A stretch of 9,119 nucleotides of DNA from a virus (Duplodnaviria; Heunggongvirae; Uroviricota; Caudoviricetes): IMG/VR virus record IMGVR_UViG_2698536443_000014, positions 1-9,119 of that record; one strand, given 5' to 3'. The translations under genes and the position numbers were made by a program. The stretch's first letter is position 1. Each line of letters opens with the position of its first letter. The notes below the pieces were generated by a model. That model saw only the letters and a program-made list of their open reading frames with translations, did no database searches and had not been told where the DNA came from. Positions 1-9,119 of this stretch are shown here, in pieces.

Positions 1-157
1 CCAGACCCGCCATAACCAGCTGGGTCAGTATTAACTGGCAGCGTTCGCGTGAAAGGTAAGTATTCTGCGCAATCTCCCCGACTGTCGCCGGTTCGGTGAC
101 GCTCAATTCATTAAACACCACTCTGGCGGTTTCGGTCATATCTTGCTGTTTTAGCAT
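1..157 (-). CDS. Partial CDS (5' end only; continues past window start), hypothetical protein with helix-turn-helix-like N-terminus
   Basis: Reverse-strand ATG at 157..155 opens a frame that stays open to position 1 (MLKQQDMTETARVVFNELSVTEPATVGEIAQNTYLSRERCQLILTQLVMAGL...). Not in the supplied ORF track because it has no stop in the window. The GEIAQ...SRERCQLIL segment has an HTH-like pattern. Identity unknown. Confidence 0.35.
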   Translation of the reverse strand, partial: MLKQQDMTETARVVFNELSVTEPATVGEIAQNTYLSRERCQLILTQLVMAGL

Positions 158-276
158 GTCTTTTTCCCTTCTGGTTAACATGACATACCAATAACTCTTG
201 TCTAAAAAGCCAGCAAGATAAAAAGTCAGTATTCACGACCACCAGCGTGTTTACTGTACTGCACCAAGTTTACAGG

Positions 277-304
277 TACAAAAAACCCGCTCAGTGGCGG
301 GTTT
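277..304 (-). terminator. Rho-independent terminator downstream of the 434..1051 gene
   Basis: Perfect 8-bp stem (283-290 AAACCCGC / 297-304 GCGGGTTT) with a 6-nt loop. On the minus-strand transcript the hairpin is followed by a U-run (UUUUUUGU, partly within the stem). It lies about 130 nt after the stop codon at 434. Confidence 0.55.
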
Positions 305-433
305 AAGTTGTGTGGCGAAGTAACCACTCTTAACACACTAATAGCATTTTTGTTATAACACAAGTAGCTCATTCAGTATTTTTAGAATCTTGACTTTCTT
401 AAGCACGGCGAACTCTGAATACCAAACATAAAA

Positions 434-1051
434 TCAATTATCTTCCAGGCCGGATGCTATCAACGAAAGCCTCTCAAAAAACGCTGTAGCAGCCTTGTCC
501 AAAGTTGAATAAGTACTGTATTCTCCGTGTTCGGGACCAACCACTACCCATGGTCGTCTTTTTGGGATTCGGGACTTCTCAGAAATCACTGTTCCAGATA
601 TACCAATATCAATTGTTACACCTGTTATTATTTTCTCTTCATCTCTTTCCCTGAACTCAATTGCCATAAATGCCGTTTTTTTTCGTTTCCCGTTTTTAAA
701 AAAATCAAATAAAGCAAAGCGATGCTCATTAAAATCAACACCCCATCGTCCTTCAGGATAAAGGGCATGAAAGTTGTCATTTACGCTCTGCATCGTCTCA
801 TAAGCTTTAACTTCTAAATCTCCATAGTGCATAGATACCGCGCAGGAGTCACTGGGTAACTGTATTTTCCCAAGATTGAAAACCTTTACTGCTCCAGAAC
901 TATGGCATCTTGCCCGCAATTTATCCCCATTTATACTAATCGGAGAAATATTCCTTAATGTTCCGGGCTGGCTCCCTCCTAAGTAAACGACTGTTAAAGA
1001 TTGCTTATTTTCAATTGCATCAACTAATACATGCTCTACATTTTTATCCAT
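434..1051 (-). CDS. Hypothetical protein, AT-rich accessory (moron-like) gene immediately downstream of Q; function unknown
   Basis: The ORF track gives 434..1078. I prefer the internal ATG at 1051 (MDKNVEHV...) because it is preceded by GGGAGA at about 5-nt spacing, whereas the ATG at 1078 has no Shine-Dalgarno sequence. Stop TGA at 436..434. The gene is visibly more AT-rich than flanking genes. I recognise no family signature in the protein. Confidence 0.6.
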   Translation of the reverse strand: MDKNVEHVLVDAIENKQSLTVVYLGGSQPGTLRNISPISINGDKLRARCHSSGAVKVFNLGKIQLPSDSCAVSMHYGDLEVKAYETMQSVNDNFHALYPEGRWGVDFNEHRFALFDFFKNGKRKKTAFMAIEFRERDEEKIITGVTIDIGISGTVISEKSRIPKRRPWVVVGPEHGEYSTYSTLDKAATAFFERLSLIASGLEDN

Positions 1052-1126
1052 AATAATCTCCCAATGAACAGGTATCATCAGGAGGTTATAATAAAATATG
1101 ATTATTTACTTTGATTGAATTTATTA

Positions 1127-1498
1127 CTATATGTAACAATCAATTTCTAAAGATACCCCCAACATTGCCAGACAACCGTCAATAAACCCTTCAGCTTTCT
1201 GCAGTCTGATAACAACCTGATTAAGTGATATCCCCAGTTTTACCCCCAACACCCGTAATGTAACCCCATACACATAATACATTTCCAGTAATTCGTATTG
1301 ATACGGTTCCTTTTTCTTAAGAACTGTCATCGCAGAGCTAATGATCAGGCCATCGTCATCGCTACATTGCGGGCGGGATTTTACTTTCGAAGGAATTAAT
1401 CCCTTAAAACCTGCAGCAACAGATGACCATTCCACATCCTCGTGATTATTTGCCACCCATGCCCCCCAACGTTCAAGAACCATTTGAATATCACGCAT
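1127..1498 (-). CDS. Late-gene antitermination protein Q (phage 82 / QuuD-QuuQ type)
   Basis: Protein MRDIQMVLERWGAWVANNHEDVEWSSVAAGFKGLIPSKVKSRPQCSDDD... matches from memory the N-terminus of Q82-type antiterminators of E. coli lambdoid prophages. Start taken at the ATG at 1498, preceded by GGAGAAAG; the track's TTG at 1513 is less likely. Stop TAG at 1129..1127. Confidence 0.85.
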   Translation of the reverse strand: MRDIQMVLERWGAWVANNHEDVEWSSVAAGFKGLIPSKVKSRPQCSDDDGLIISSAMTVLKKKEPYQYELLEMYYVYGVTLRVLGVKLGISLNQVVIRLQKAEGFIDGCLAMLGVSLEIDCYI

Positions 1499-1515
1499 CA
1501 ACTTTCTCCACAAAA

Positions 1516-2511
1516 TCAGGCCAGCACGCCTATTGCCAGCGCACGATCGATAAAACGAAATATCAGCTCCAGCTGGGAGCCATACTTCTCTTCAAATGCC
1601 ACGGTATCCGCATGCAGCTCGTCGTGATGCTTTCTGCACAAAGGCAGCACGAAGAGGTCATGCGCTTTTGTACCCATTCCCCCCTGACCGTGGCCTATCA
1701 GGTGGTGGGGATCATCAGCAGGCTTTCCACAACATGCACACGGCTGCGTCTTAACCCAGCGCGTGTACTTTTCGTTAACCCAGCGGCGACGTTTTGGGCG
1801 TAACATAAAAGACTCCGGCGACTCCGGATCCACTTTCAGCGCCAGCACCTTTTTCGCTTTATTCTGGATGATGCTGGTGGCCGGAACCGAAGGCACAAGG
1901 TCACTCTCCCGGGTGACAGACGGCACAACAGGCTTCGGTAATCTCAGTGCCTTACGGGCTGCACTTTCCGGTAAGGCATCCGCCAGATCATTACGAACCA
2001 GCCACCAGCACAGTTCCGGCATTGTCACAACGTGACTGTCATCAAAACCGAGATCCCGACGCACAACAGACAACACCCAGCGGGCACAGTTATCCGTTGC
2101 CATTGATTCCAGCCGTTCCGTGAACTGATCGCGCAGCTGGTTATCGCAGTGCCAGCACAGACGGATTGCGCCCGGCGCGTGTCGCATTGTGGTCATGTTC
2201 TCGCTGTGCCAGTCGGAATGAGGCCACTGGCAACCTTTTTCACGAAGTAACCAGCTTTCAAGACATTCCACGCCACCAGCACGACGGATCACTGCCTCAT
2301 TGCGGAACACGGCCCGAACGGCAGGATCATCCGCCAGCGGTTGTGATGCTGCCGGAACGGCACCACTGGCAAAAGATGAATAACGTTCCGGCTCAGGCTC
2401 CAGCAGGACACGCCCCTGCATAAACAGGGGCATCAGCTCTGAACCGGGTCTGAACAATACGATCCCCATACGCGGGGCAATTTCAGGGGTCAGTAGTGCT
2501 CTCACAGTCAC
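1516..2511 (-). CDS. DUF968-family (YdfU-like) phage protein with C-terminal Cys/His HNH-like motif
   Basis: 331-aa ORF. The C-terminal segment (CACCGKPADDPHHLIGHGQGGMGTKAHDLFVLPLCRKHHDELH) is a typical CxxC...HH...H motif of YdfU/DUF968 proteins that sit upstream of Q in lambdoid prophages. The start is uncertain: the track uses GTG at 2511, one base after the upstream gene's TGA, with weak ribosome-binding context. Confidence 0.65.
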   Translation of the reverse strand: MTVRALLTPEIAPRMGIVLFRPGSELMPLFMQGRVLLEPEPERYSSFASGAVPAASQPLADDPAVRAVFRNEAVIRRAGGVECLESWLLREKGCQWPHSDWHSENMTTMRHAPGAIRLCWHCDNQLRDQFTERLESMATDNCARWVLSVVRRDLGFDDSHVVTMPELCWWLVRNDLADALPESAARKALRLPKPVVPSVTRESDLVPSVPATSIIQNKAKKVLALKVDPESPESFMLRPKRRRWVNEKYTRWVKTQPCACCGKPADDPHHLIGHGQGGMGTKAHDLFVLPLCRKHHDELHADTVAFEEKYGSQLELIFRFIDRALAIGVLA

Positions 2512-2512
2512 C

Positions 2513-3322
2513 TCAATGAACGGTATCGAGCAGCTTTAACAGCTCAGGAAATCGGGATTCGAAGAAATGCGGCTGCGTCTCGCGCGGATTTGCAGGACTG
2601 GTGATGTTCTTGCCGAACATGCAGCCTTTCGCGGTCAGCGACCAGAATTTTTTGATGTTGTTAATCGCGGTACGGCTGTATCGTTCGCGTTGTTCAACGA
2701 TCCCCAGCTTCACCATCTGGTGATATGCCTGATTAGCCGTCAGGCGGATACCATACTGCTTCAGCAGTGCACTCAGTGACAGCGTGGGGCGGCTTGAGCC
2801 ATCAGGCGCGTCAGCAGGAGCATCAATGGCATAGCGCGGTGCCAGATTCGGTAAGCCAACAGCCTCCTGGAGTTTCTGACAGGCCCCAAGCACTGAAGAG
2901 TTAGACAGGTTTAACTCCCTGCGCATAAAGTCCAGCAGAATCACTCCAGCCTGCATCTTGTCAGCAGCCTGCCCGGATAATTTTTCCGGTGCGCTGGTTA
3001 CCATATCGAAAGTACGGATCACCTTCAGATGGAATGACGGGCTGATCCACATTGCATAGGCATACACCAGTTCTTTGCAGACATACGTCCCCTGGTTATT
3101 TCCGCCATTAATGACGCTAACTGGTTGATTTTGTTCCAGAGGCGGAATTCCACCCTCGGTGAAAAGTTGTTCAATCAATTCACAGGTTTGCTTATTGGAG
3201 AGCCAGTATTTCGGGCGTTTTTTTTGTTCTCCCCCGGCTGCCCTGTGCAGATCGTTCAGGCTGTAACGCCCATAAGCATCACGACGAACTTCAATACCAT
3301 CAATGACCATCAGATTATTCAT
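2513..3322 (-). CDS. KilA-N domain protein (antirepressor/Bro-like family)
   Basis: N-terminus (VIDGIEVRRDAYGRYSLNDLHRAAGG...RPKYWLSNKQTCELIEQL...GTYVCKELVYAYAMWISPSFHLKVI) matches the KilA-N DNA-binding domain signature. Strong Shine-Dalgarno (AAGAGGAGAAA) upstream of ATG 3322. Stop TGA at 2515..2513. Confidence 0.8.
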   Translation of the reverse strand: MNNLMVIDGIEVRRDAYGRYSLNDLHRAAGGEQKKRPKYWLSNKQTCELIEQLFTEGGIPPLEQNQPVSVINGGNNQGTYVCKELVYAYAMWISPSFHLKVIRTFDMVTSAPEKLSGQAADKMQAGVILLDFMRRELNLSNSSVLGACQKLQEAVGLPNLAPRYAIDAPADAPDGSSRPTLSLSALLKQYGIRLTANQAYHQMVKLGIVEQRERYSRTAINNIKKFWSLTAKGCMFGKNITSPANPRETQPHFFESRFPELLKLLDTVH

Positions 3323-3341
3323 ACTTCGTTTCTCCTCTTAA

Positions 3342-3731
3342 TCAGGCGGCTGCACCCGCCGTTTTCTCGTACTTACTGATAGTGATCTCGACCTTCCCTC
3401 CCGGGATAACCGATCCCCACTCAACCAGCATTCTTTTCACCTGACTGTCGTCTTCCCACACACCCGCGTGGGTCAGGGCGTCAAACAGCGCCTTGTTATA
3501 GTTGTCCAGATCGCGGATCCGGTTATCCGGAGGAAACAACACGATCTCCACTGAAGCAGGTGCCGACGTTGGTTTCGGCAGACGACGTAACTGCTCAATG
3601 ATGGCGGCACACGCCGCGCTCTGGAATTTTCGTCCCGCCGTGCTTATCAGGCTCTTACCAGCAAACGCCCCTTTGTTGGGGTGTCGCCAGTACGTGTTCA
3701 CGCTGGGCGGAAACGGCAGAATCAGCTTCAT
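3342..3731 (-). CDS. rusA: Holliday junction resolvase RusA (crossover junction endodeoxyribonuclease)
   Basis: 129-aa protein (MKLILPFPPSVNTYWRH...DNRIRDLDNYNKALFDALTHAGVWEDDSQV...) carries the RusA family signature, including the catalytic-region D-x-D-N motif. Start ATG 3731 overlaps the upstream stop (ATGA). Confidence 0.85.
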   Translation of the reverse strand: MKLILPFPPSVNTYWRHPNKGAFAGKSLISTAGRKFQSAACAAIIEQLRRLPKPTSAPASVEIVLFPPDNRIRDLDNYNKALFDALTHAGVWEDDSQVKRMLVEWGSVIPGGKVEITISKYEKTAGAAA

Positions 3732-4054
3732 ACTTTCAGGCCCCTCTCATGTAACCAGTGGGCTGCACGCAGCCTGGCGTTTTCCTCACCGGCAAGCAGT
3801 GAGCGGATAATCCCGACCGCCTCGCTGTCGTCGTCCTTCACCGCGGTATGAAGCGTGATGCCCCGGGCCACGCCACGCTTTATCGTGATGACGCCTTTTT
3901 TCTCCAGTGCGCGAAGATGCTCCACTGCTGCATTCACTGAACGGTATCCCAGCATGGTTGCCACCTCCTGATTGGTTGGCGGAAAGCCACGCTCTTTCTG
4001 GTAAGAAATCAGCATATCCAGCACCTGCTGCTGGCATTGAGTTAACGTCGTCAT
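3728..4054 (-). CDS. LexA N-terminal DNA-binding-domain-like protein lacking the S24 peptidase domain
   Basis: MTTLTQCQQQVLDMLISYQKERGFPPTNQEVATMLGYRSVNAAVEHLRALEKKGVITI resembles the LexA winged-helix DNA-binding domain (MKALTARQQEVF...[36 protein letters not shown]). The ORF is only 108 aa, so there is no autoprotease domain. ATGA overlaps at both ends. Confidence 0.65.
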   Translation of the reverse strand: MTTLTQCQQQVLDMLISYQKERGFPPTNQEVATMLGYRSVNAAVEHLRALEKKGVITIKRGVARGITLHTAVKDDDSEAVGIIRSLLAGEENARLRAAHWLHERGLKV

Positions 4055-4704
4055 GCCGCCATCTCCCTGACAAGTTTTTCTGCCTGCTGGCGAACCTGCG
4101 CCAGAAAGGCCTCACCACATGCCTCAAGTTCATCGCGCCCGATGTAGCTGATTGCCGGTCCCTTCCAGGTCTTGTCGAAAACAGCAATAGCACCAGCGAA
4201 GAACGCTCCTGTCGGCACCTGCTTCTCGTCTTTCGGGATAAACCAGACAGGCAGTTCAAAACCAATACGCCCGCGAATAAAAGCAATATGATCTGCATCT
4301 TCCGGCCACCACACTTCGCTGGTGGCAGCTTTGATCAGGAAAACATAGCGCCCGCCTTTATCACGCATGGCACTGGCATGCTTCATGATGTAACGCATGC
4401 CGGTGATGTATTGCCCCTCATGCTGACTGGCGCGGCTGTATGGGGGATTTCCAAAGGCAGCACCTTTAAGCTCCGCAAGACGTTCTGACCAGTCATGCGC
4501 CAGCGCGTTGTCTTCCGCCGTGTAATACGCGGCGCATTTGGCGTTATCACCGTCAGTAAACAGATCCAGAACAAACGGGCCAAACAGGGTGTTAATTCCC
4601 CAGAAAATGTTGTCCGGTGTGCGCCACTGATCGCCCACTTCCTTCAGTTCATGGGCTGGTTTGTTTCGCAGTTCCACCAGCGCCCGGCAATATTTATTAC
4701 TCAT
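4051..4704 (-). CDS. Phage N6-adenine DNA methyltransferase (Dam-like, NPPY motif)
   Basis: Contains the FGNPPY catalytic motif and upstream DLFTD-type motif typical of phage Dam-family methyltransferases. Start taken at ATG 4704..4702 (MSNKYCR...), which forms a TAATG overlap with the upstream stop; the track's 4737 start is a GTG extension. Confidence 0.8.
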   Translation of the reverse strand: MSNKYCRALVELRNKPAHELKEVGDQWRTPDNIFWGINTLFGPFVLDLFTDGDNAKCAAYYTAEDNALAHDWSERLAELKGAAFGNPPYSRASQHEGQYITGMRYIMKHASAMRDKGGRYVFLIKAATSEVWWPEDADHIAFIRGRIGFELPVWFIPKDEKQVPTGAFFAGAIAVFDKTWKGPAISYIGRDELEACGEAFLAQVRQQAEKLVREMAA

Positions 4705-5192
4705 TAAGCCCCCACGTAATTCCCTGACAGATACCACTCTTCACCTGATGCAGCGCGCTTGCTGCTTTTCCGTAAGCACCGCTCACGACGTGCCAGAAAA
4801 TTGTTTCGTTCTGGCTGGGAGTGGCTTTCACGGAATGCCGCCATCCACACGGTTGCAGCACGACGAAATAAGCCCCTGGACTCCAGTTCTTCCGCCTGGC
4901 GGGCCAGGCACAAAATCACCCGCGGGTCGTTAGTGCCGACATAGAAATTGCGCACAGGTCTGGTTTCACGAACTGGTTGCCGTTCCGCCTCCGGCGATAT
5001 CTTTGTCTGGCGCGGGAAATGTCTGCGTGCATCCCCTTCACAACGGTGAGCCACACGCCCACTCTGACGTAACTTGCTTGCTGACTGCAGAACGCGCTGC
5101 CGTGAGTAACCTGTAAAAGCATCCGCAATGTCTCCGGAAGTACACCCCGGATGGGCTTCAATGAATTTCTGAACGTCATTCAAAAGACTCAT
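4704..5192 (-). CDS. Hypothetical protein with C-terminal PerC/ANR-like motif
   Basis: 162 aa from ATG 5192 (Shine-Dalgarno AGGGGG; the track's GTG at 5198 is 2 codons upstream). The C-terminal segment LARQAEELESRGLFRRAATVWMAAFRE...RRERC resembles, from memory, the conserved core of PerC/ANR-family small regulators. The N-terminal half is unassigned. Confidence 0.5.
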   Translation of the reverse strand: MSLLNDVQKFIEAHPGCTSGDIADAFTGYSRQRVLQSASKLRQSGRVAHRCEGDARRHFPRQTKISPEAERQPVRETRPVRNFYVGTNDPRVILCLARQAEELESRGLFRRAATVWMAAFRESHSQPERNNFLARRERCLRKSSKRAASGEEWYLSGNYVGA

Positions 5193-5194
5193 GC

Positions 5195-6136
5195 TCACCC
5201 CCTGAATCCTGCCGGGATCTGGCTGTAGTCCACGTTGTCGTAACTGGCTTTGAAGTACGGGTCCTCGCGTTTTTCGGTGTACGTGCTGACGGACGGCGAT
5301 AAGCGCAGGGAAAGCTCATCCCATTTTTCCCGCAGCTTCGACGGGCTGAGCACGTTACGGCACCAGAACGGATCGCGACTGACGCGGCTGTACATCTCGC
5401 AGATTTGTTTATGAGTATGACCATCCTGCACACACATCAGGCGAATTTCGTTTGCCCAGGCTGTCCAGTTCGGTTCTTTGGGACGAACCACCTCGCCGTC
5501 ACATTCGGCAGCCTGCTCGTACAGGGCAATGATTTTTTTCCAGAGCCACTGTGCGCAGGTCAAATCATCCTGCGTCCCCCACTGGCGCTTTTTAGGGCTG
5601 AATACAACCGCATCAGGATGGCGAGTTAAAAAATCCTGTTCATCCGTCTGCGTGTCCGGTTGCGAAGCGTCCGGACGAGAAGGTTTTTTATCTGACGGAT
5701 CATGTTTTGATTTTACTGACGGATCCCCGCCAGATTCTGACGGGTGAAAACCCGCTTTTTTACCAGATTTCGACGCATCAAATTTTGACGGGTCAGATTT
5801 TGATGCGTCAGATTTTGACGGGTCAGAATCTGACAGTTGAGAAAATGCCGCTGCCTGAAGCTTCGCAACGTTAAGCTGATAAACATTCGACGCATTGCGG
5901 TTACCCTGGCGACGCGCCTTACGCGTTAACCAGCCTTCTGCTTCCAGCCGTGCGATAGCCGTTCTGACGGTACTCATCCCCGCGCCAATCTGGCGGGCAA
6001 TGGTTTCAATTGATGGCCAGCACACACCTTCGTCATTACTGAAATCAGCCAGGCGGGCCATAATTGCCACGCTGGATAACTTCATGCCTGACGCAGCGCA
6101 ACCATCCCATACATAGCCGGTTAATTTAGTGCTCAT
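5195..6136 (-). CDS. Phage replication initiation protein (N-terminal HTH domain, repeat-rich linker, DnaT-like C-terminal region)
   Basis: The N-terminus (LSSVAIMARLADFSNDEGVCWPSIETIARQIGAGMSTVRTAIARLEAEGWL) is a winged-HTH typical of prophage replication initiators. The central linker is encoded by tandem repeats. The C-terminal region resembles the DnaT-like domain of prophage replication proteins, called from memory. It occupies the O-gene position after cro/cII. Confidence 0.7.
   Translation of the reverse strand: MSTKLTGYVWDGCAASGMKLSSVAIMARLADFSNDEGVCWPSIETIARQIGAGMSTVRTAIARLEAEGWLTRKARRQGNRNASNVYQLNVAKLQAAAFSQLSDSDPSKSDASKSDPSKFDASKSGKKAGFHPSESGGDPSVKSKHDPSDKKPSRPDASQPDTQTDEQDFLTRHPDAVVFSPKKRQWGTQDDLTCAQWLWKKIIALYEQAAECDGEVVRPKEPNWTAWANEIRLMCVQDGHTHKQICEMYSRVSRDPFWCRNVLSPSKLREKWDELSLRLSPSVSTYTEKREDPYFKASYDNVDYSQIPAGFRG
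5690..5836. repeat. Iteron-like direct repeats (candidate replication origin) inside the initiator gene
   Basis: About five tandem copies of a 14-15-bp unit (TCAGATTTTGACGGG, TCAGATTTTGATGCG, TCAAATTTTGACGGG, CCAGATTTCGACGCA, TCAGAATCTGACAG) between about 5762 and 5836, plus degenerate copies with the TCTGACGG core at 5691, 5715 and 5735. In the protein frame they encode S-D-x-S-K repeats. Confidence 0.5.
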
Positions 6137-6145
6137 GACCGACCT

Positions 6146-6484
6146 CTATTTCCCTGAATTTACGACGAAACTGTTCGAGCGGACTGAAGCATTCATGCTC
6201 ATAACCTTCGCGGAGGTAGATAACCCGTTGTGTTTCCGGCTCCCAACGAATGACTCTGACGGGCACTCCGTAGTGATCTTTGAACCAGCGGTTAACTTGT
6301 CGCAAAGGACTGTCTCCTTCTGCCGGTTGAAATCACCCACAGCCCACTCTGCAAAGCTGTGGGTTACAATTTCCCTGTCACCTGGTACATTCACTGCATA
6401 GCAATATTCCACCTTCGCTTTTCCACCCGGAACAGGAAGCGCAATCAGTTGCGAGCGACGGTAGTGTGTTGTTAAACTGTTCAT
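6146..6484 (-). CDS. Hypothetical protein (C-terminal half doubtful; possible frameshift or overlapping gene)
   Basis: Start ATG 6484 overlaps the stop of the upstream CII-like gene (ATGA), which supports a real gene start. The N-terminal ~50 aa look protein-like, but the C-terminal half is Ser/Thr-rich and low-complexity, while an alternative frame over 6126..6305 looks far more protein-like (see findings). Confidence 0.4.
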
Positions 6485-7065
6485 GCGTTAGTTTCTCCAC
6501 AACCAGAAGCAATCGACGCCACGACGCCCGGAGCTGCACACTCGCGGGCGTTACTCTTTTCCGGCGCACAAAAAACACGAAATAACAGTGTTAAATGCTC
6601 CTGCCACTTCGCCATTACTTGGTAGCTGTTCTCTTCGATTTGCTCACGCTCAGCCTGGTCAATAACTCCATCAGCAGTTGCCTTGCGTAAGTACTGGGAA
6701 TGCTTGCCAATCCATTCTATTGACTCCATCAGCCGCTGATTAATGTCACCATTGTCAATGTCATCAATGACCACCAGCGGCACAAACACCCCATTACTAC
6801 GACGGGCTATTGCATCTGTTACATGCCTGGTACCACTGGCATCCTGTAAAACCATGGCCCACTCAAGTGGAAAAATTTGATCCCCACCGCTACGCAGTCT
6901 GTTATGCAATTGATCTTTTGCTGGGGTGATATCATCAGATTTATACAAACCAAGAATTTCTGCTGCTTCCTCATAGCCATGAGGTAAATCAGCAATCGTT
7001 CTTCGTATTGCTGCCACCAGCCATGCTGGTTGTTTATCAACTTTCCATTCAGGTTCTTTACCCAC
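6481..7065 (-). CDS. CII-like early regulatory protein (CP76/YdaT-type position and size), putative
   Basis: 194-aa ORF immediately downstream of Cro, GTG start at 7065 preceded by TGAGGA at about 6-nt spacing. The position is that of lambda cII or of the YdaT/CP76-type CII equivalents of E. coli cryptic prophages. The family call is by context and memory only. Confidence 0.45.
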
Positions 7066-7092
7066 GGTTAATTCCTCATTTCTGTGGTGTTT

Positions 7093-7290
7093 TTATGCCG
7101 CAGCACTGTTAGTCTTTTGATATAAAGACACGTCAACTTTCAGTTTCCCGTTAGTAATTTTTTCTAACTGGTACGCTCGGCCTTCAGGAATAATCTCAGG
7201 CCACTCTGAAACAGACGGATGCTTAATACCTAGGGCTTCGGCGGTTTTACAAACTCCGCCGAAATAATTAATCACGTCGGATTTCCGCAT
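7093..7290 (-). CDS. cro: Cro-like repressor (P22 Cro type)
   Basis: MRKSDVINYFGGVCKTAEALGIKHPSVSEWPEIIPEGRAYQLEKITNGKLKVDVSLYQ aligns along its length with P22 Cro as I recall it (MYKKDVIDHFGTQRAVAKALGISDAAVSQWKEVIPEKDAYRLEIVTAGALKYQ). It is divergent from the repressor gene across the operator region, with Shine-Dalgarno GGGAGA. Confidence 0.8.
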   Translation of the reverse strand: MRKSDVINYFGGVCKTAEALGIKHPSVSEWPEIIPEGRAYQLEKITNGKLKVDVSLYQKTNSAAA

Positions 7291-7321
7291 TTCTGTCTCC
7301 CGTTAAATTACGTTAAGCAGA

Positions 7322-7387
7322 AATGTAGGATATCCAACATGCTAATGTCAAGAATCCTACATGGGCATGTGGTAGGATTGCCTACAT
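7322..7387. promoter_or_regulatory. Right operator region (OR) with pR-like promoter (minus strand) overlapping the presumptive pRM
   Basis: 18-bp near-palindrome ATGTAGGATATCCAACAT at 7323..7340. Further half-site copies ATCCTACAT at 7354..7362 and GTAGGATTGCCTACAT at 7372..7387. On the minus strand: -35 TTGACA (complement of 7346..7351), 17-bp spacer, -10 CTACAT/TACATT (complement of about 7322..7328), directed toward cro. Confidence 0.6.
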
Positions 7388-8039
7388 GATGAACATGAGT
7401 GATCGTATTCGCCAAAGGCGAAAAGAACTGAACCTGACACAACAAGCACTGGCTGATTTGACTGGTGTGAACCGTGTCACGGTTACTGGATGGGAAAAGG
7501 ACGACTACCAACCAAATGGAGCCAACCTTCAAGCCCTAGCCAACGCACTTAAATGCGATCCTCTGTGGCTTGTTAGCGGAAAAGGCTCGCCTGAACCAAA
7601 GATAAATCTAAAACCTGAAATATTCGCAGTTAAAAAAGTCCCCCTAATCTCGTGGGTTCAGGCGGGTTCATGGACAATGACGGAGCCTGGTGTCAGGAAA
7701 GAAGATGCTGAAGAGTGGGTTTATACTACCGCCCTTGTATCAGAAATGGCATTTGCACTACGGGTCCGTGGTGATTCAATGACCAATCCCCTCGGCTCAC
7801 CATCGATACCAGAAGGTTCTATCGTTATCGTAGAGCCAGATATTATTGATACAGAGTGTATTAACGGAAAAATCGTTGTTGCCCATATCAATGGTGGGCA
7901 AGAAGCGACACTCAAAAAATTTGTTGAGGACTGGCCGAACAGGTATCTCGTCCCACTAAATCCTAACTATAAAACTATTGAATGCGGTGAGAACTGTAGA
8001 ATAGTTGGTCTTGTCAAACAAGTAATAATGGATTTTTGA
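7386..8039 (+). CDS. cI: CI-like prophage repressor (HTH-XRE N-terminal domain, S24 LexA-like peptidase C-terminal domain)
   Basis: N-terminal HTH (IRQRRKELNLTQQALADLTGVNRVTVTGWE). C-terminal S24 autopeptidase signature with GDSM serine motif and a downstream lysine (LRVRGDSMTNPL...EATLKKF). Starts at the edge of the operator region, consistent with a short-leader pRM transcript. Confidence 0.85.
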   Translation: MMNMSDRIRQRRKELNLTQQALADLTGVNRVTVTGWEKDDYQPNGANLQALANALKCDPLWLVSGKGSPEPKINLKPEIFAVKKVPLISWVQAGSWTMTEPGVRKEDAEEWVYTTALVSEMAFALRVRGDSMTNPLGSPSIPEGSIVIVEPDIIDTECINGKIVVAHINGGQEATLKKFVEDWPNRYLVPLNPNYKTIECGENCRIVGLVKQVIMDF

Positions 8040-8060
8040 CACATCTTCCTCACTATCGCA

Positions 8061-8085
8061 AAACCGGGGTATCCCCGGTTTTTTT
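8061..8085 (+). terminator. Rho-independent terminator after the repressor gene
   Basis: Stem ACCGGGG (8063-8069) / CCCCGGT (8073-8079) with a 3-nt loop, followed by a T7 run (8079-8085), 22 nt after the repressor stop codon. Confidence 0.6.
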
Positions 8086-8101
8086 ATGAGCCTATCTTTT
8101 T

Positions 8102-8155
8102 ATGTAGGATAACCAACATAAACTCTTGACACTCGCATGTTGGATATCCTACATT
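8102..8155 (+). promoter_or_regulatory. Left operator region (OL) with pL-like promoter
   Basis: ATGTAGGATAACCAACAT (8102..8119) and ATGTTGGATATCCTACAT (8137..8154, the exact reverse complement of the OR site at 7323..7340) flank and overlap -35 TTGACA (8126..8131), a 17-18-bp spacer and -10 CTACAT/TACATT (8149..8155). Spacer and -10 are almost identical to the pR-like promoter. Confidence 0.55.
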
Positions 8156-8313
8156 TGTTTTTAGAGTTGTGGTGAATGCGCAGGCTGATGCGCGAAAGAC
8201 ATTGCAGCTATTGCGGAAAAGAGCTGTTCGGCGGGGCAATTAAACGCCCGTGAGAGTCTGAAATAACCGCAAGCCGGAGATCAGCATCGGTCACCACAGC
8301 AGCCACTGCTTTG

Positions 8314-8360
8314 GCGGTACCAGTTTGTACACTTGCTTCCGGCTGGTACCGCTCTTTTTA
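8314..8360 (+). terminator. Long hairpin plus T-run in the pL leader (terminator-like; boxA-like CGCTCTTTTTA overlaps its 3' side)
   Basis: Perfect 10-bp stem GCGGTACCAG (8314-8323) / CTGGTACCGC (8343-8352) with a 19-nt loop, followed by TCTTTTTA. CGCTCTTTTTA at 8350..8360 resembles the boxA consensus (CGCTCTTTA). The long loop makes efficient termination uncertain. Confidence 0.4.
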
Positions 8361-8482
8361 CAAAACAGAGAAGAGCATCACCGGACGACGGGCTCATAAC
8401 CCAATCCACCCGGGCGGCTGCCACCGCAGGTGTTCTTCTCTGTTTTGTGGAGAAACTAATATCTTGTGCAGAGGAAAATAGA

Positions 8483-9029
8483 ATGAAATTACCAAAATTT
8501 CGTAACGCAATTGTGTACCGAGCAACATTACCTAGTATACAGGCTATTGAAGGTCATCTTCTCGAACTCCCTTATTCTGAAATCGGGGAAACAGAATTTT
8601 CACGGTCCTCTTTTGTAGAGAATCCTGTCACTGGTGAACTGGTAACTCCGATATCTGGTGGGTACGCAATGGTAATCCGTCATGATCAGAAAATAATTCC
8701 CCGACATGTCGTCATGAAAGAAGCTAATTCTCGAATCCGAACAATCGAAAATATGTCCGGGAATAAATTAAAGCGTGCCGAACGACTGGCCATTATTGAT
8801 AACGTACGAGTAGATCTATGCAAACAGGCATTTGTTAAGTCTACGCTGATTCTTGCATTGTACAGCACTGATGAGAAATTATTGGTAATCAACACAACCA
8901 ATAAAATAATAGCCGGTATGGTATGCGCAATGCTGATTAAGGTTGTCGGTTCAGTGAAAACAGAAACAATCAACATCAGTGATATCAAGAATGGACTGAC
9001 TACACGCCTGAATAACTACATCAATGGTG
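8483..9029 (+). pseudogene. RdgC-family recombination-associated protein gene, 3'-truncated by IS1 insertion
   Basis: ATG 8483 with Shine-Dalgarno GAGGAAAA; the track's 8333 start is a TTG extension through the leader. N-terminus MKLPKFRNAIVYRA matches the RdgC N-terminus (MLWFKNLMVYRL as recalled), with further colinear similarity over about 180 aa. The frame ends at a TAA (9032..9034) supplied by the IS1 terminus; full RdgC is about 300 aa. The gene is AT-rich. Confidence 0.6.
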
Positions 9030-9119
9030 GGTAATGACTCCAACTTACTGATAGTGTTTTATGTTCAGATAATGCCCGATGACCTTGTCATGCAGCTCCA
9101 CCGATTTTGAGAACGACAG
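9030..9119 (-). mobile_element. IS1 insertion sequence, terminal 90 bp (right inverted repeat end; element continues beyond window)
   Basis: 9030..9119 (GGTAATGACTCCAACTTACTGATAGTGTTTTATGTTCAGATAATGCCCGATGACCTTGTCATGCAGCTCCACCGATTTTGAGAACGACAG) matches the reverse complement of the IS1 right end, including the terminal inverted repeat GGTAATGACTCCAACTTATTGAT, with about 2 mismatches. Compared from memory. Confidence 0.85.
9045..9119 (-). CDS. insB: IS1 transposase InsB, 3' end (partial; start lies beyond window end)
   Basis: The minus-strand frame reads ...LSFSKSVELHDKVIGHYLNIKHYQ followed by a stop (TAA, complement of 9045..9047), which matches the InsB C-terminus as I recall it. Confidence 0.75.
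   Translation of the reverse strand: MSFSKSVELHDKVIGHYLNIKHYQ

Follow-up and report, generated by a model that had tools for sequence, protein, structure and literature searches.

The window analyzed here is the whole 9,119-nucleotide (nt) stretch of a Caudoviricetes genome held as IMG/VR record IMGVR_UViG_2698536443_000014 (positions 1 to 9,119). Its minus-strand genes, running from about 7290 to 1, are the early-right operon of a lambdoid prophage. They encode, in order, Cro, a CII/CP76-like protein, an O-like replication protein with iterons, a PerC-like protein, a Dam methylase, a protein made of a LexA DNA-binding domain only, RusA, KilA-N, DUF968/YdfU, and antiterminator Q. Directly after Q comes the subject of this report, a gene for a 205-amino-acid (aa) protein with a WYL domain (hereafter, the WYL gene). 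The features of this locus are the following:

1127..1513, minus strand: antiterminator Q (PF06530; Pfam E-value 1.5e-47), with an allele-specific C-terminal part at approximately 1127-1340
1047..1095, minus strand: RNA hairpin pairing the Shine-Dalgarno sequence (1058-1062) and the start codon (1049-1051); minimum free energy -16.1 kcal/mol, z-score -3.6
434..1051, minus strand: coding sequence of the 205-aa WYL-domain protein, stop codon at 434-436 (open reading frame list, PHROG 8498, and PGAP)
857..1051, minus strand: N-terminal WYL (Sm-like β-barrel) domain, residues 1-65, isoelectric point 9.4
437..793, minus strand: C-terminal α/β domain, residues 87-205, uncharacterized
347..363, minus strand: 17-mer TTGTGTTATAACAAAAA, candidate pR'/Q-binding region, proposed from its perfect conservation between two alleles and from its position
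352-360, minus strand: extended -10 element TGTTATAAC, inside the 17-mer
335..340, minus strand: -10-like hexamer TAGTGT, 11 nt past the extended -10 element and abutting the leader
280..327, minus strand: leader hairpin (312-327) and intrinsic terminator (stem 283-304, U-run to 280), identified by folding; a conserved, tR'-like backbone element

The Coding Sequence and Its Start Codon

A first-pass annotation of the window had proposed an open reading frame (ORF) at either 434..1051 (205 aa) or 434..1078 (214 aa). Both candidates exist on the minus strand, and the 205-aa form beginning at the ATG at 1051 is the real one. A GGGAG Shine-Dalgarno sequence lies 6 nt upstream of this ATG, the PGAP/RefSeq coding sequence (strain MS7163) is 618 nt long, and PHROG 8498 covers residues 1-205 of 205 (E-value 3e-126). 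A diverged Escherichia coli allele, with 70% amino-acid identity, has a GTG start at the same place, and its upstream ATG is out of frame. The start at 1078 was rejected for that reason and for its lack of a Shine-Dalgarno sequence. Comparison of the window allele with the 70%-identical allele gave a ratio of nonsynonymous to synonymous substitution rates (dN/dS) of 0.23, from which it follows that the gene is translated and that purifying selection acts on it.

A WYL Domain outside the Known Regulator Architecture

It is firmly supported that the product is a WYL-domain protein outside the winged helix-turn-helix (wHTH)-WYL-WCX regulators. The AlphaFold2 model (mean predicted local distance difference test score, 85.7) consists of a helix and a five-stranded barrel (residues 1-65), a poorly ordered linker, and a second domain (residues 87-205) in which a helix, three strands, a long basic loop, two strands, and a helix follow one another. 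A helix followed by an Sm-like five-stranded β-barrel is the WYL fold. In sequence searches, the Pfam WYL model (PF13280) scored 16.5 bits against the single protein, below its cut-off of 21.8, and matched 41 of 89 homologues at E ≤ 0.01, the best at 4.6e-6. The 89-sequence family profile matched the WYL domains of DriD, BrxR, and CapW-like proteins in the PDB, with E-values of 1e-4 to 6e-3. The earlier remark that the protein could be matched to no known family is thus not confirmed, given the WYL domain in its N-terminal third, and some RefSeq copies already carry the label "WYL domain-containing protein."

In the 89-sequence alignment, Y23, G26, R33, A47, and K56 are invariant, and the near-invariant positions include G25, P29, G30, P37, and F58; each of these falls within the first 60 residues and so within the WYL domain. 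Hidden Markov model alignments place Y23, S27, and R33 opposite DriD Y168, S172, and R178, which hydrogen-bond the backbone of single-stranded DNA (ssDNA) (PMC9186387). The ligand-contact residues described for DriD (Y168/S172/R178) and for CapW (S and R residues) are accordingly represented in the phage protein (PMC9186387, PMC11662680). By strand register, K44-L45-R46-A47-R48 would correspond to the RWHVR motif of CapW, and K56-x-F58 would occupy the position of R204-x-W206 in DriD (PMC9186387, PMC11662680).

The other parts of a classical WYL regulator were not found. No helix-turn-helix (HTH) family was matched in a Pfam scan of the sequence and its homologues; the WYL domain begins at residue 1-3, and there is no room for an HTH because the Q stop codon and the WYL gene start codon are only 75 nt apart. 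The ferredoxin-like, dimerizing WCX domain is absent from the C terminus, and the 89-sequence alignment contains no conserved catalytic motif. PADLOC-DB 2.0 returned two weak matches only (E-values 0.0014 and 0.0066), both to WYL models listed as CRISPR-Cas associated signaling, and no defense effector. PHROGs gave families of "unknown function" only, the NCBIfam search gave nothing useful, and a Foldseek search of BFVD gave no match at E ≤ 1e-3. No paper on the protein family, its accessions, or HTH-less WYL proteins of phages came up in a literature search. Collectively, these results firmly support a real gene whose product has a WYL ligand-binding domain, with conserved ssDNA-contact residues, and is without a DNA-binding or enzymatic output domain.

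A Shared Terminator and a Candidate Late Promoter

The first-pass annotation had assigned the gene its own terminator at 277..304. A hairpin with a U-run is indeed present at 283-304 by folding (the consensus terminator scan did not list it), but it is not the property of this gene. Copies of the segment 277-352 with 90-95% identity are present in about 900 of 5426 complete E. coli genomes, and most of the WYL gene region accompanies them in only 51; phages 1720a-02, PhiR40_1, and SfV carry the same element, without the WYL gene, after their own, different Q genes. The shared leader/terminator element (GTTAAGAGTGGTTACTTCGCCAC...AAACCCGCC....GCGGGTTTTTT) is annotated as a terminator in SfV. Its reading as the WYL gene's own terminator was rejected, since it is a shared backbone element that also occurs in phages with other Q alleles.

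Phage 1720a-02 also gives an indication of where the late promoter lies. Its homology to the window begins only 20 nt past the Q stop codon, so its late promoter must lie directly before the leader. In the window, the 17-mer TTGTGTTATAACAAAAA is directly upstream of the shared leader, where other phages have promoter-like hexamers, and is identical in the two alleles amid non-coding DNA that has diverged. Hexamers of the form TAnnnT stand at the same spot as TAGTGT in the variant allele (TAATCT), PhiR40_1 (TATGCT), and 1720a-02 (TATGTT). The usual layout of Q-dependent late promoters, as in lambda, 82, and 21, is a promoter followed by a -10-like pause element. TAGTGT may accordingly be a sigma-dependent pause element or an alternative -10. 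Conservation and position together suggest the order Q, WYL gene, pR' (347-363), leader hairpin (312-327), and tR' (283-304). The promoter scanner made no call at the proposed pR', and a comparative study of pR' regions did not resolve this type of Q (PMC6266700).

On the opposite strand, Rfam returned nothing above threshold; the sub-threshold hits include a match to the small RNA STnc130 (176-312, plus strand; 30 bits against a gathering score of 55, E-value 0.04). The match overlaps the terminator and is probably driven by its hairpin.

Inheritance of the WYL Gene with Q

The AT-richness of the gene, estimated in the first-pass annotation at roughly 40% guanine plus cytosine (GC), had been taken to suggest its horizontal acquisition. 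The computed value is 39.7% (32% at third codon positions), compared with 51-57% in the next seven genes upstream, so the estimate was accurate, but low GC is not specific to this gene. Q (42%), the spacer between Q and the WYL gene (24%), and the cI/cro/rdgC-like immunity region (40-47%) are low as well, and the composition for this reason marks a block and not the WYL gene alone.

The WYL gene is present in 74 of the 5426 complete E. coli genomes, as a copy at least 99% identical in 52 and as a variant at approximately 78% nucleotide identity in 22. The allele-specific C-terminal part of Q is likewise found in 74 genomes, and the next-best Q matches cover only the N-terminal third. The exact WYL protein is indexed in 6004 blocks of public assemblies. 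All 10 of the 10 distinct contexts read have the order Q, 75-nt gap, WYL gene, and then the same 65-67-aa protein, while the outer modules vary. Homology to other phages breaks at approximately 335-352 and 1340-1450, in agreement with the ends of the low-GC tract, so that the Q specificity region, the WYL gene, and the promoter are exchanged as a unit. These data firmly support inheritance of the WYL gene together with Q and the late promoter, and acquisition of the gene by itself is not upheld, as a single module, made up of the C-terminal part of Q, the WYL gene, and the promoter, lies within the low-GC block and between the breakpoints.

The proposal that a variable cassette lies beside Q was borne out by the limited distribution of the gene and by the contents of the same slot elsewhere. 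The slot is empty in 1720a-02 and has fillings of intermediate length in other genomes. In PhiR40_1 (locus L002, 2804-3250), it is occupied by an unrelated 148-aa antisense ORF with a lipoprotein-like N terminus, and thus accepts different cargo. The variant allele in E. coli OkiPb01681 (locus L023, 6982-7599) sits in a Stx2a prophage with the order Q, WYL gene, small ORF, methylase, tRNAs, and stx2AB. With Q on one side of this allele and the pR'/tRNA/stx2a cluster on the other, an influence of the gene on late transcription would have consequences for toxin output.

Expression of the WYL Gene

A promoter scan found no sigma-70-like site upstream of the WYL gene on its coding strand, and the spacer between Q and the WYL gene contains an 11-nt insertion or deletion between alleles. 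For these two reasons, read-through from Q is the most likely source of transcription, in agreement with the cotranscription proposed earlier, and the WYL gene would be the last delayed-early gene. The first-pass annotation had also reported no terminator between Q and the gene. The terminator scan flagged a single terminator-like hairpin, at 1058-1084, which covers the ribosome-binding site and the start codon and reads better as a translational operator than as a terminator. In the variant allele, both arms have changed in sequence, and the hairpin is nevertheless stronger (-21.6 kcal/mol, z-score -5.4). This start-codon hairpin probably holds expression low or gates it.

Homologues and Their Genomic Neighborhoods

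Relatives were sought among 1.84 billion representative proteins, which yielded 490 (clusters at 50% identity, E ≤ 1e-3) from across phyla, nearly all of them 185-215 aa long and matched over their full length. The INPHARED phages contain no close relative and two distant matches only, although PHROG 8498 exists; the plasmid search gave one match, in a P2-like element of Enterobacter soli. Related loci were retrieved with a 15-sequence alignment as the query, and neighborhoods were tallied over 28 dereplicated loci.

Several homologues occupy the immunity regions of prophages. In a Marinobacter prophage, a metagenomic lambdoid prophage, and an Oceanospirillaceae P2-like prophage, the homologue lies 16-22 nt downstream of the gene divergent from cro; this gene encodes an HTH-S24 repressor in two of the three, and in one of them an integrase gene directly follows the homologue. 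In P2-like prophages of Serratia and Enterobacter (loci L010, L024, and L089), a BRCT-fused version is located in the lysogenic operon between the gene for a C-type repressor (plus a 209-aa membrane protein) and the integrase gene. Pseudoalteromonas phage PY3 carries a longer relative between an integrase and a LexA-type repressor. One homologue is part of an integrase-bounded island with AAA_15/RloB, Abi_C, and HicB genes, and others stand beside ordinary chromosomal genes. On a contig from a Planctomycete (L025), the end of ligA and the homologue share 4 nt and the two are translationally coupled, an arrangement seen once.

Over the 28 loci, the commonest of the two upstream genes encode HTH_3 (five loci) or Cro/CI-type proteins, with Arc-type proteins also among the common ones, and integrase is the most frequent product of the two downstream genes (four loci). 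Toxin-antitoxin and transposase genes are frequent in the surroundings, and no conserved partner gene was found across these loci. The family therefore works as a single gene and favors the regulatory modules of temperate elements, usually right after a DNA-binding regulator.

Other Features of the Window

Three other genes of the window are placed as follows:

1..157, minus strand: small winged-helix (TrmB-like) protein, truncated by the window end (PHROG 331, E-value 1e-29)
7096-7290, minus strand: Cro
7386-8036, plus strand: CI-type HTH-S24 repressor

The product of 1..157 has weak TrmB/MarR matches in Pfam, and its counterpart in phiP27 is annotated as a TrmB family regulator. This TrmB/MarR-like gene (PHROG 331) is the first gene past the conserved terminator, at the head of the late operon, and is kept in thousands of E. 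coli prophages. At the other end of the window, just downstream of the CI gene, a half-length RdgC-like protein is encoded (8483-9034, plus strand; Pfam RdgC positions 3-167 of 298). Accessory genes expressed in the lysogen have their place at this spot after the CI gene, and RdgC proteins interfere with RecA. Within the early operon, the 108-aa protein encoded at 3731-4054 (minus strand) consists of the LexA DNA-binding domain without the S24 protease part. Related phages also have this protein, under the annotation LexA-like, and it could be an uncleavable LexA mimic. A 15-nt unit repeated 4.3 times at 5764-5827, inside the O-like replication gene, encodes a peptide repeat of the PSKSDASKSD type, and these repeats are probably origin iterons.

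Proposed Function and Alternatives

The absence of a DNA-binding HTH and of a WCX domain rules out the role of a classical WYL transcription factor. The putative function of the protein is probably to sense or mask a DNA-damage signal. The reading we prefer, tentatively and at a little short of an even chance, is that of a non-enzymatic ssDNA-binding protein that serves as a decoy for, or modulator of, host ssDNA-triggered responses during lytic development. In such a scheme, the WYL gene would be transcribed by read-through from Q as the last gene of the pR delayed-early operon, upstream of pR' and the terminator, and its translation would be throttled by the hairpin that buries the ribosome-binding site and start codon. 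The protein would then be made after induction, at the time when phage replication and RecBCD action generate ssDNA. Its N-terminal WYL domain would bind short single-stranded nucleic acid, most likely ssDNA, in a pocket of the DriD/CapW/BrxR type, and the C-terminal α/β domain may supply the output by self-association or by contact with another protein. Binding of the ssDNA signal could thereby blunt or re-route host responses, either defense operons controlled by WYL repressors of the CapW/BrxR type or the RecA/SOS system. The identity of ssDNA as the ligand is what we infer from the contact residues; the decoy or modulator role is speculative. E. coli does possess a target on which such a decoy could act, namely CapW, whose repression is relieved by ssDNA and which reacts to the induction of a lambda prophage (PMC11662680). 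The RdgC-like gene and the gene for the LexA DNA-binding domain, both in the same prophage, suggest an investment in the ssDNA/RecA axis.

Several observations weigh against this decoy/modulator reading. In five other lineages, the homologue is in a lysogenic operon, directly after a CI-like repressor or before an integrase, a position that points to a role in the lysogen and not in lytic growth. DriD R176 is replaced by T31, and the W-Y-L triad is degenerate, the corresponding strand reading K44-L45-R46-A47-R48; it is likewise degenerate in DriD (NYL) and CapW (WHV), and for this reason is not strictly defining (PMC9186387, PMC11662680). Some WYL domains are described as binding RNA or cyclic di-GMP instead (PMC11880434; PMC6789036). 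On quantitative grounds, a stoichiometric sponge is questionable for so abundant a ligand as ssDNA. The C-terminal domain, which makes up over half of the protein, is left without an explanation, and the geometry between the two domains is uncertain in the AlphaFold2 model (predicted template modeling score, 0.61).

The position of the gene next to regulators raises another possibility, namely that the phage's regulators (Q here and CI-like proteins elsewhere) use the protein as a ligand-sensing subunit, giving ssDNA-responsive antitermination or repression by what would be a "split" HTH-WYL regulator. We regard this as rather unlikely. In E. coli, the WYL gene follows Q in 74 of 74 carrier genomes and in each of the 10 mosaic contexts read; homologues begin 16-45 nt after a CI-like repressor gene in Marinobacter, Serratia/Enterobacter, Oceanospirillaceae, and the metagenomic lambdoid prophage; and the upstream neighbor in the 28 loci is most commonly an HTH_3, Cro, CI, or Arc-type gene. 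More than 90% of WYL proteins have an HTH in the same chain (PMC6789036). The linkage to Q, however, has a trivial explanation, as anything between Q and its cognate promoter is inherited with both, and many homologues have no adjacent regulator.

The first-pass annotation had offered defense as a hypothesis, and this idea can be phrased as a prophage anti-phage or superinfection-exclusion sensor whose WYL domain detects invading nucleic acid and whose C-terminal domain arrests growth or blocks the invader. It is consistent with the homologues beside cI in lysogenic operons, the classic rexAB-type position, with the BRCT-fused version after a membrane protein in P2-like prophages, with the integrase-bounded island that also holds AAA_15/RloB, Abi_C, and HicB, and with the common occurrence of WYL domains in defense loci (PMC11662680). 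Against such a role, the protein has no effector domain and no conserved catalytic residue, and its PADLOC matches are the two weak WYL-model ones, with no effector among them. There is also no conserved partner gene across the 28 loci, and in the window the gene has no detectable promoter and belongs to a lytic operon that is repressed in the lysogen. A defense sensor is therefore considered improbable.

It is highly improbable that the protein binds RNA in the manner of Sm/Hfq and targets phage transcripts, such as the conserved pR' leader, in place of ssDNA. In both sequence and structure, it matches best the ssDNA-binding domains of DriD, CapW, and BrxR, with the contact residues conserved, and the leader occurs in about 900 genomes of which only those 51 have most of the WYL gene region. 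A spurious or decaying ORF, for which nothing speaks besides the missing functional annotation, is refuted by the purifying selection (dN/dS 0.23), the full-length homologues in hundreds of clusters across phyla, and the confident structure prediction.

Significance and Relationship to Known Systems

Recent work has shown that defense operons (CBASS, BREX) and non-SOS damage responses are switched on by WYL domains acting as ssDNA sensors, and a phage WYL protein without a DNA-binding or enzymatic output is the kind of molecule that could read or mask such a signal. If it modulates induction, late transcription, or a host alarm, it would add a new layer of prophage control, possibly extending to toxin expression. 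A broader conjecture, which we consider doubtful, is that HTH-less WYL proteins are widespread phage ssDNA sensors plugged into CI or Q, or decoys that hide the ssDNA alarm from repressors of the CapW/BrxR type. Were they sensors within CI/Q circuits, induction or late transcription would come under RecA-independent, ssDNA-gated control, and this would include Shiga toxin output in the Stx2a prophage with the variant allele. Should the protein prove to have no measurable effect, the annotation of the Q-pR' region will still have been corrected, to the order Q, cargo slot, pR', and tR'.

The WYL gene resembles lambdoid morons of the stx, bor, and lom type in being a variable accessory gene near Q in mosaic prophages, one of its alleles occurring in a Stx2a prophage, and the first-pass annotation had drawn an analogy to stx and bor. 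The stx and bor morons lie downstream of pR'/tR' and depend on Q. The WYL gene, unlike these, is upstream of the probable pR'/tR' and therefore not at the position of stx and other Q-dependent morons, so the analogy appears to fail on this point; it is also inherited as a block with the Q specificity region. As judged from sequence, it would not qualify as a moron with its own promoter and terminator, since no sigma-70-like site was found and the terminator is a shared backbone element.

PsiB and RdgC, as modulators of the ssDNA/RecA axis, have no sequence relationship to the protein, and fold matches were only at the level of frataxin and generic α/β sandwiches. Compared with the wHTH-WYL-WCX regulators (DriD, PafBC, CapW, and BrxR), the phage protein lacks their HTH and WCX domains. 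WYL1 of Cas13d systems and the WYL domain of bacterial PIF1 helicases are accessory WYL proteins or domains without a transcription-factor function. WYL1 and PIF1 carry a ribbon-helix-helix or helicase partner domain and have a known partner activity, whereas the partner domain of the phage protein is novel. What is new is thus an architectural variant of a known domain, one that is common in E. coli prophages.
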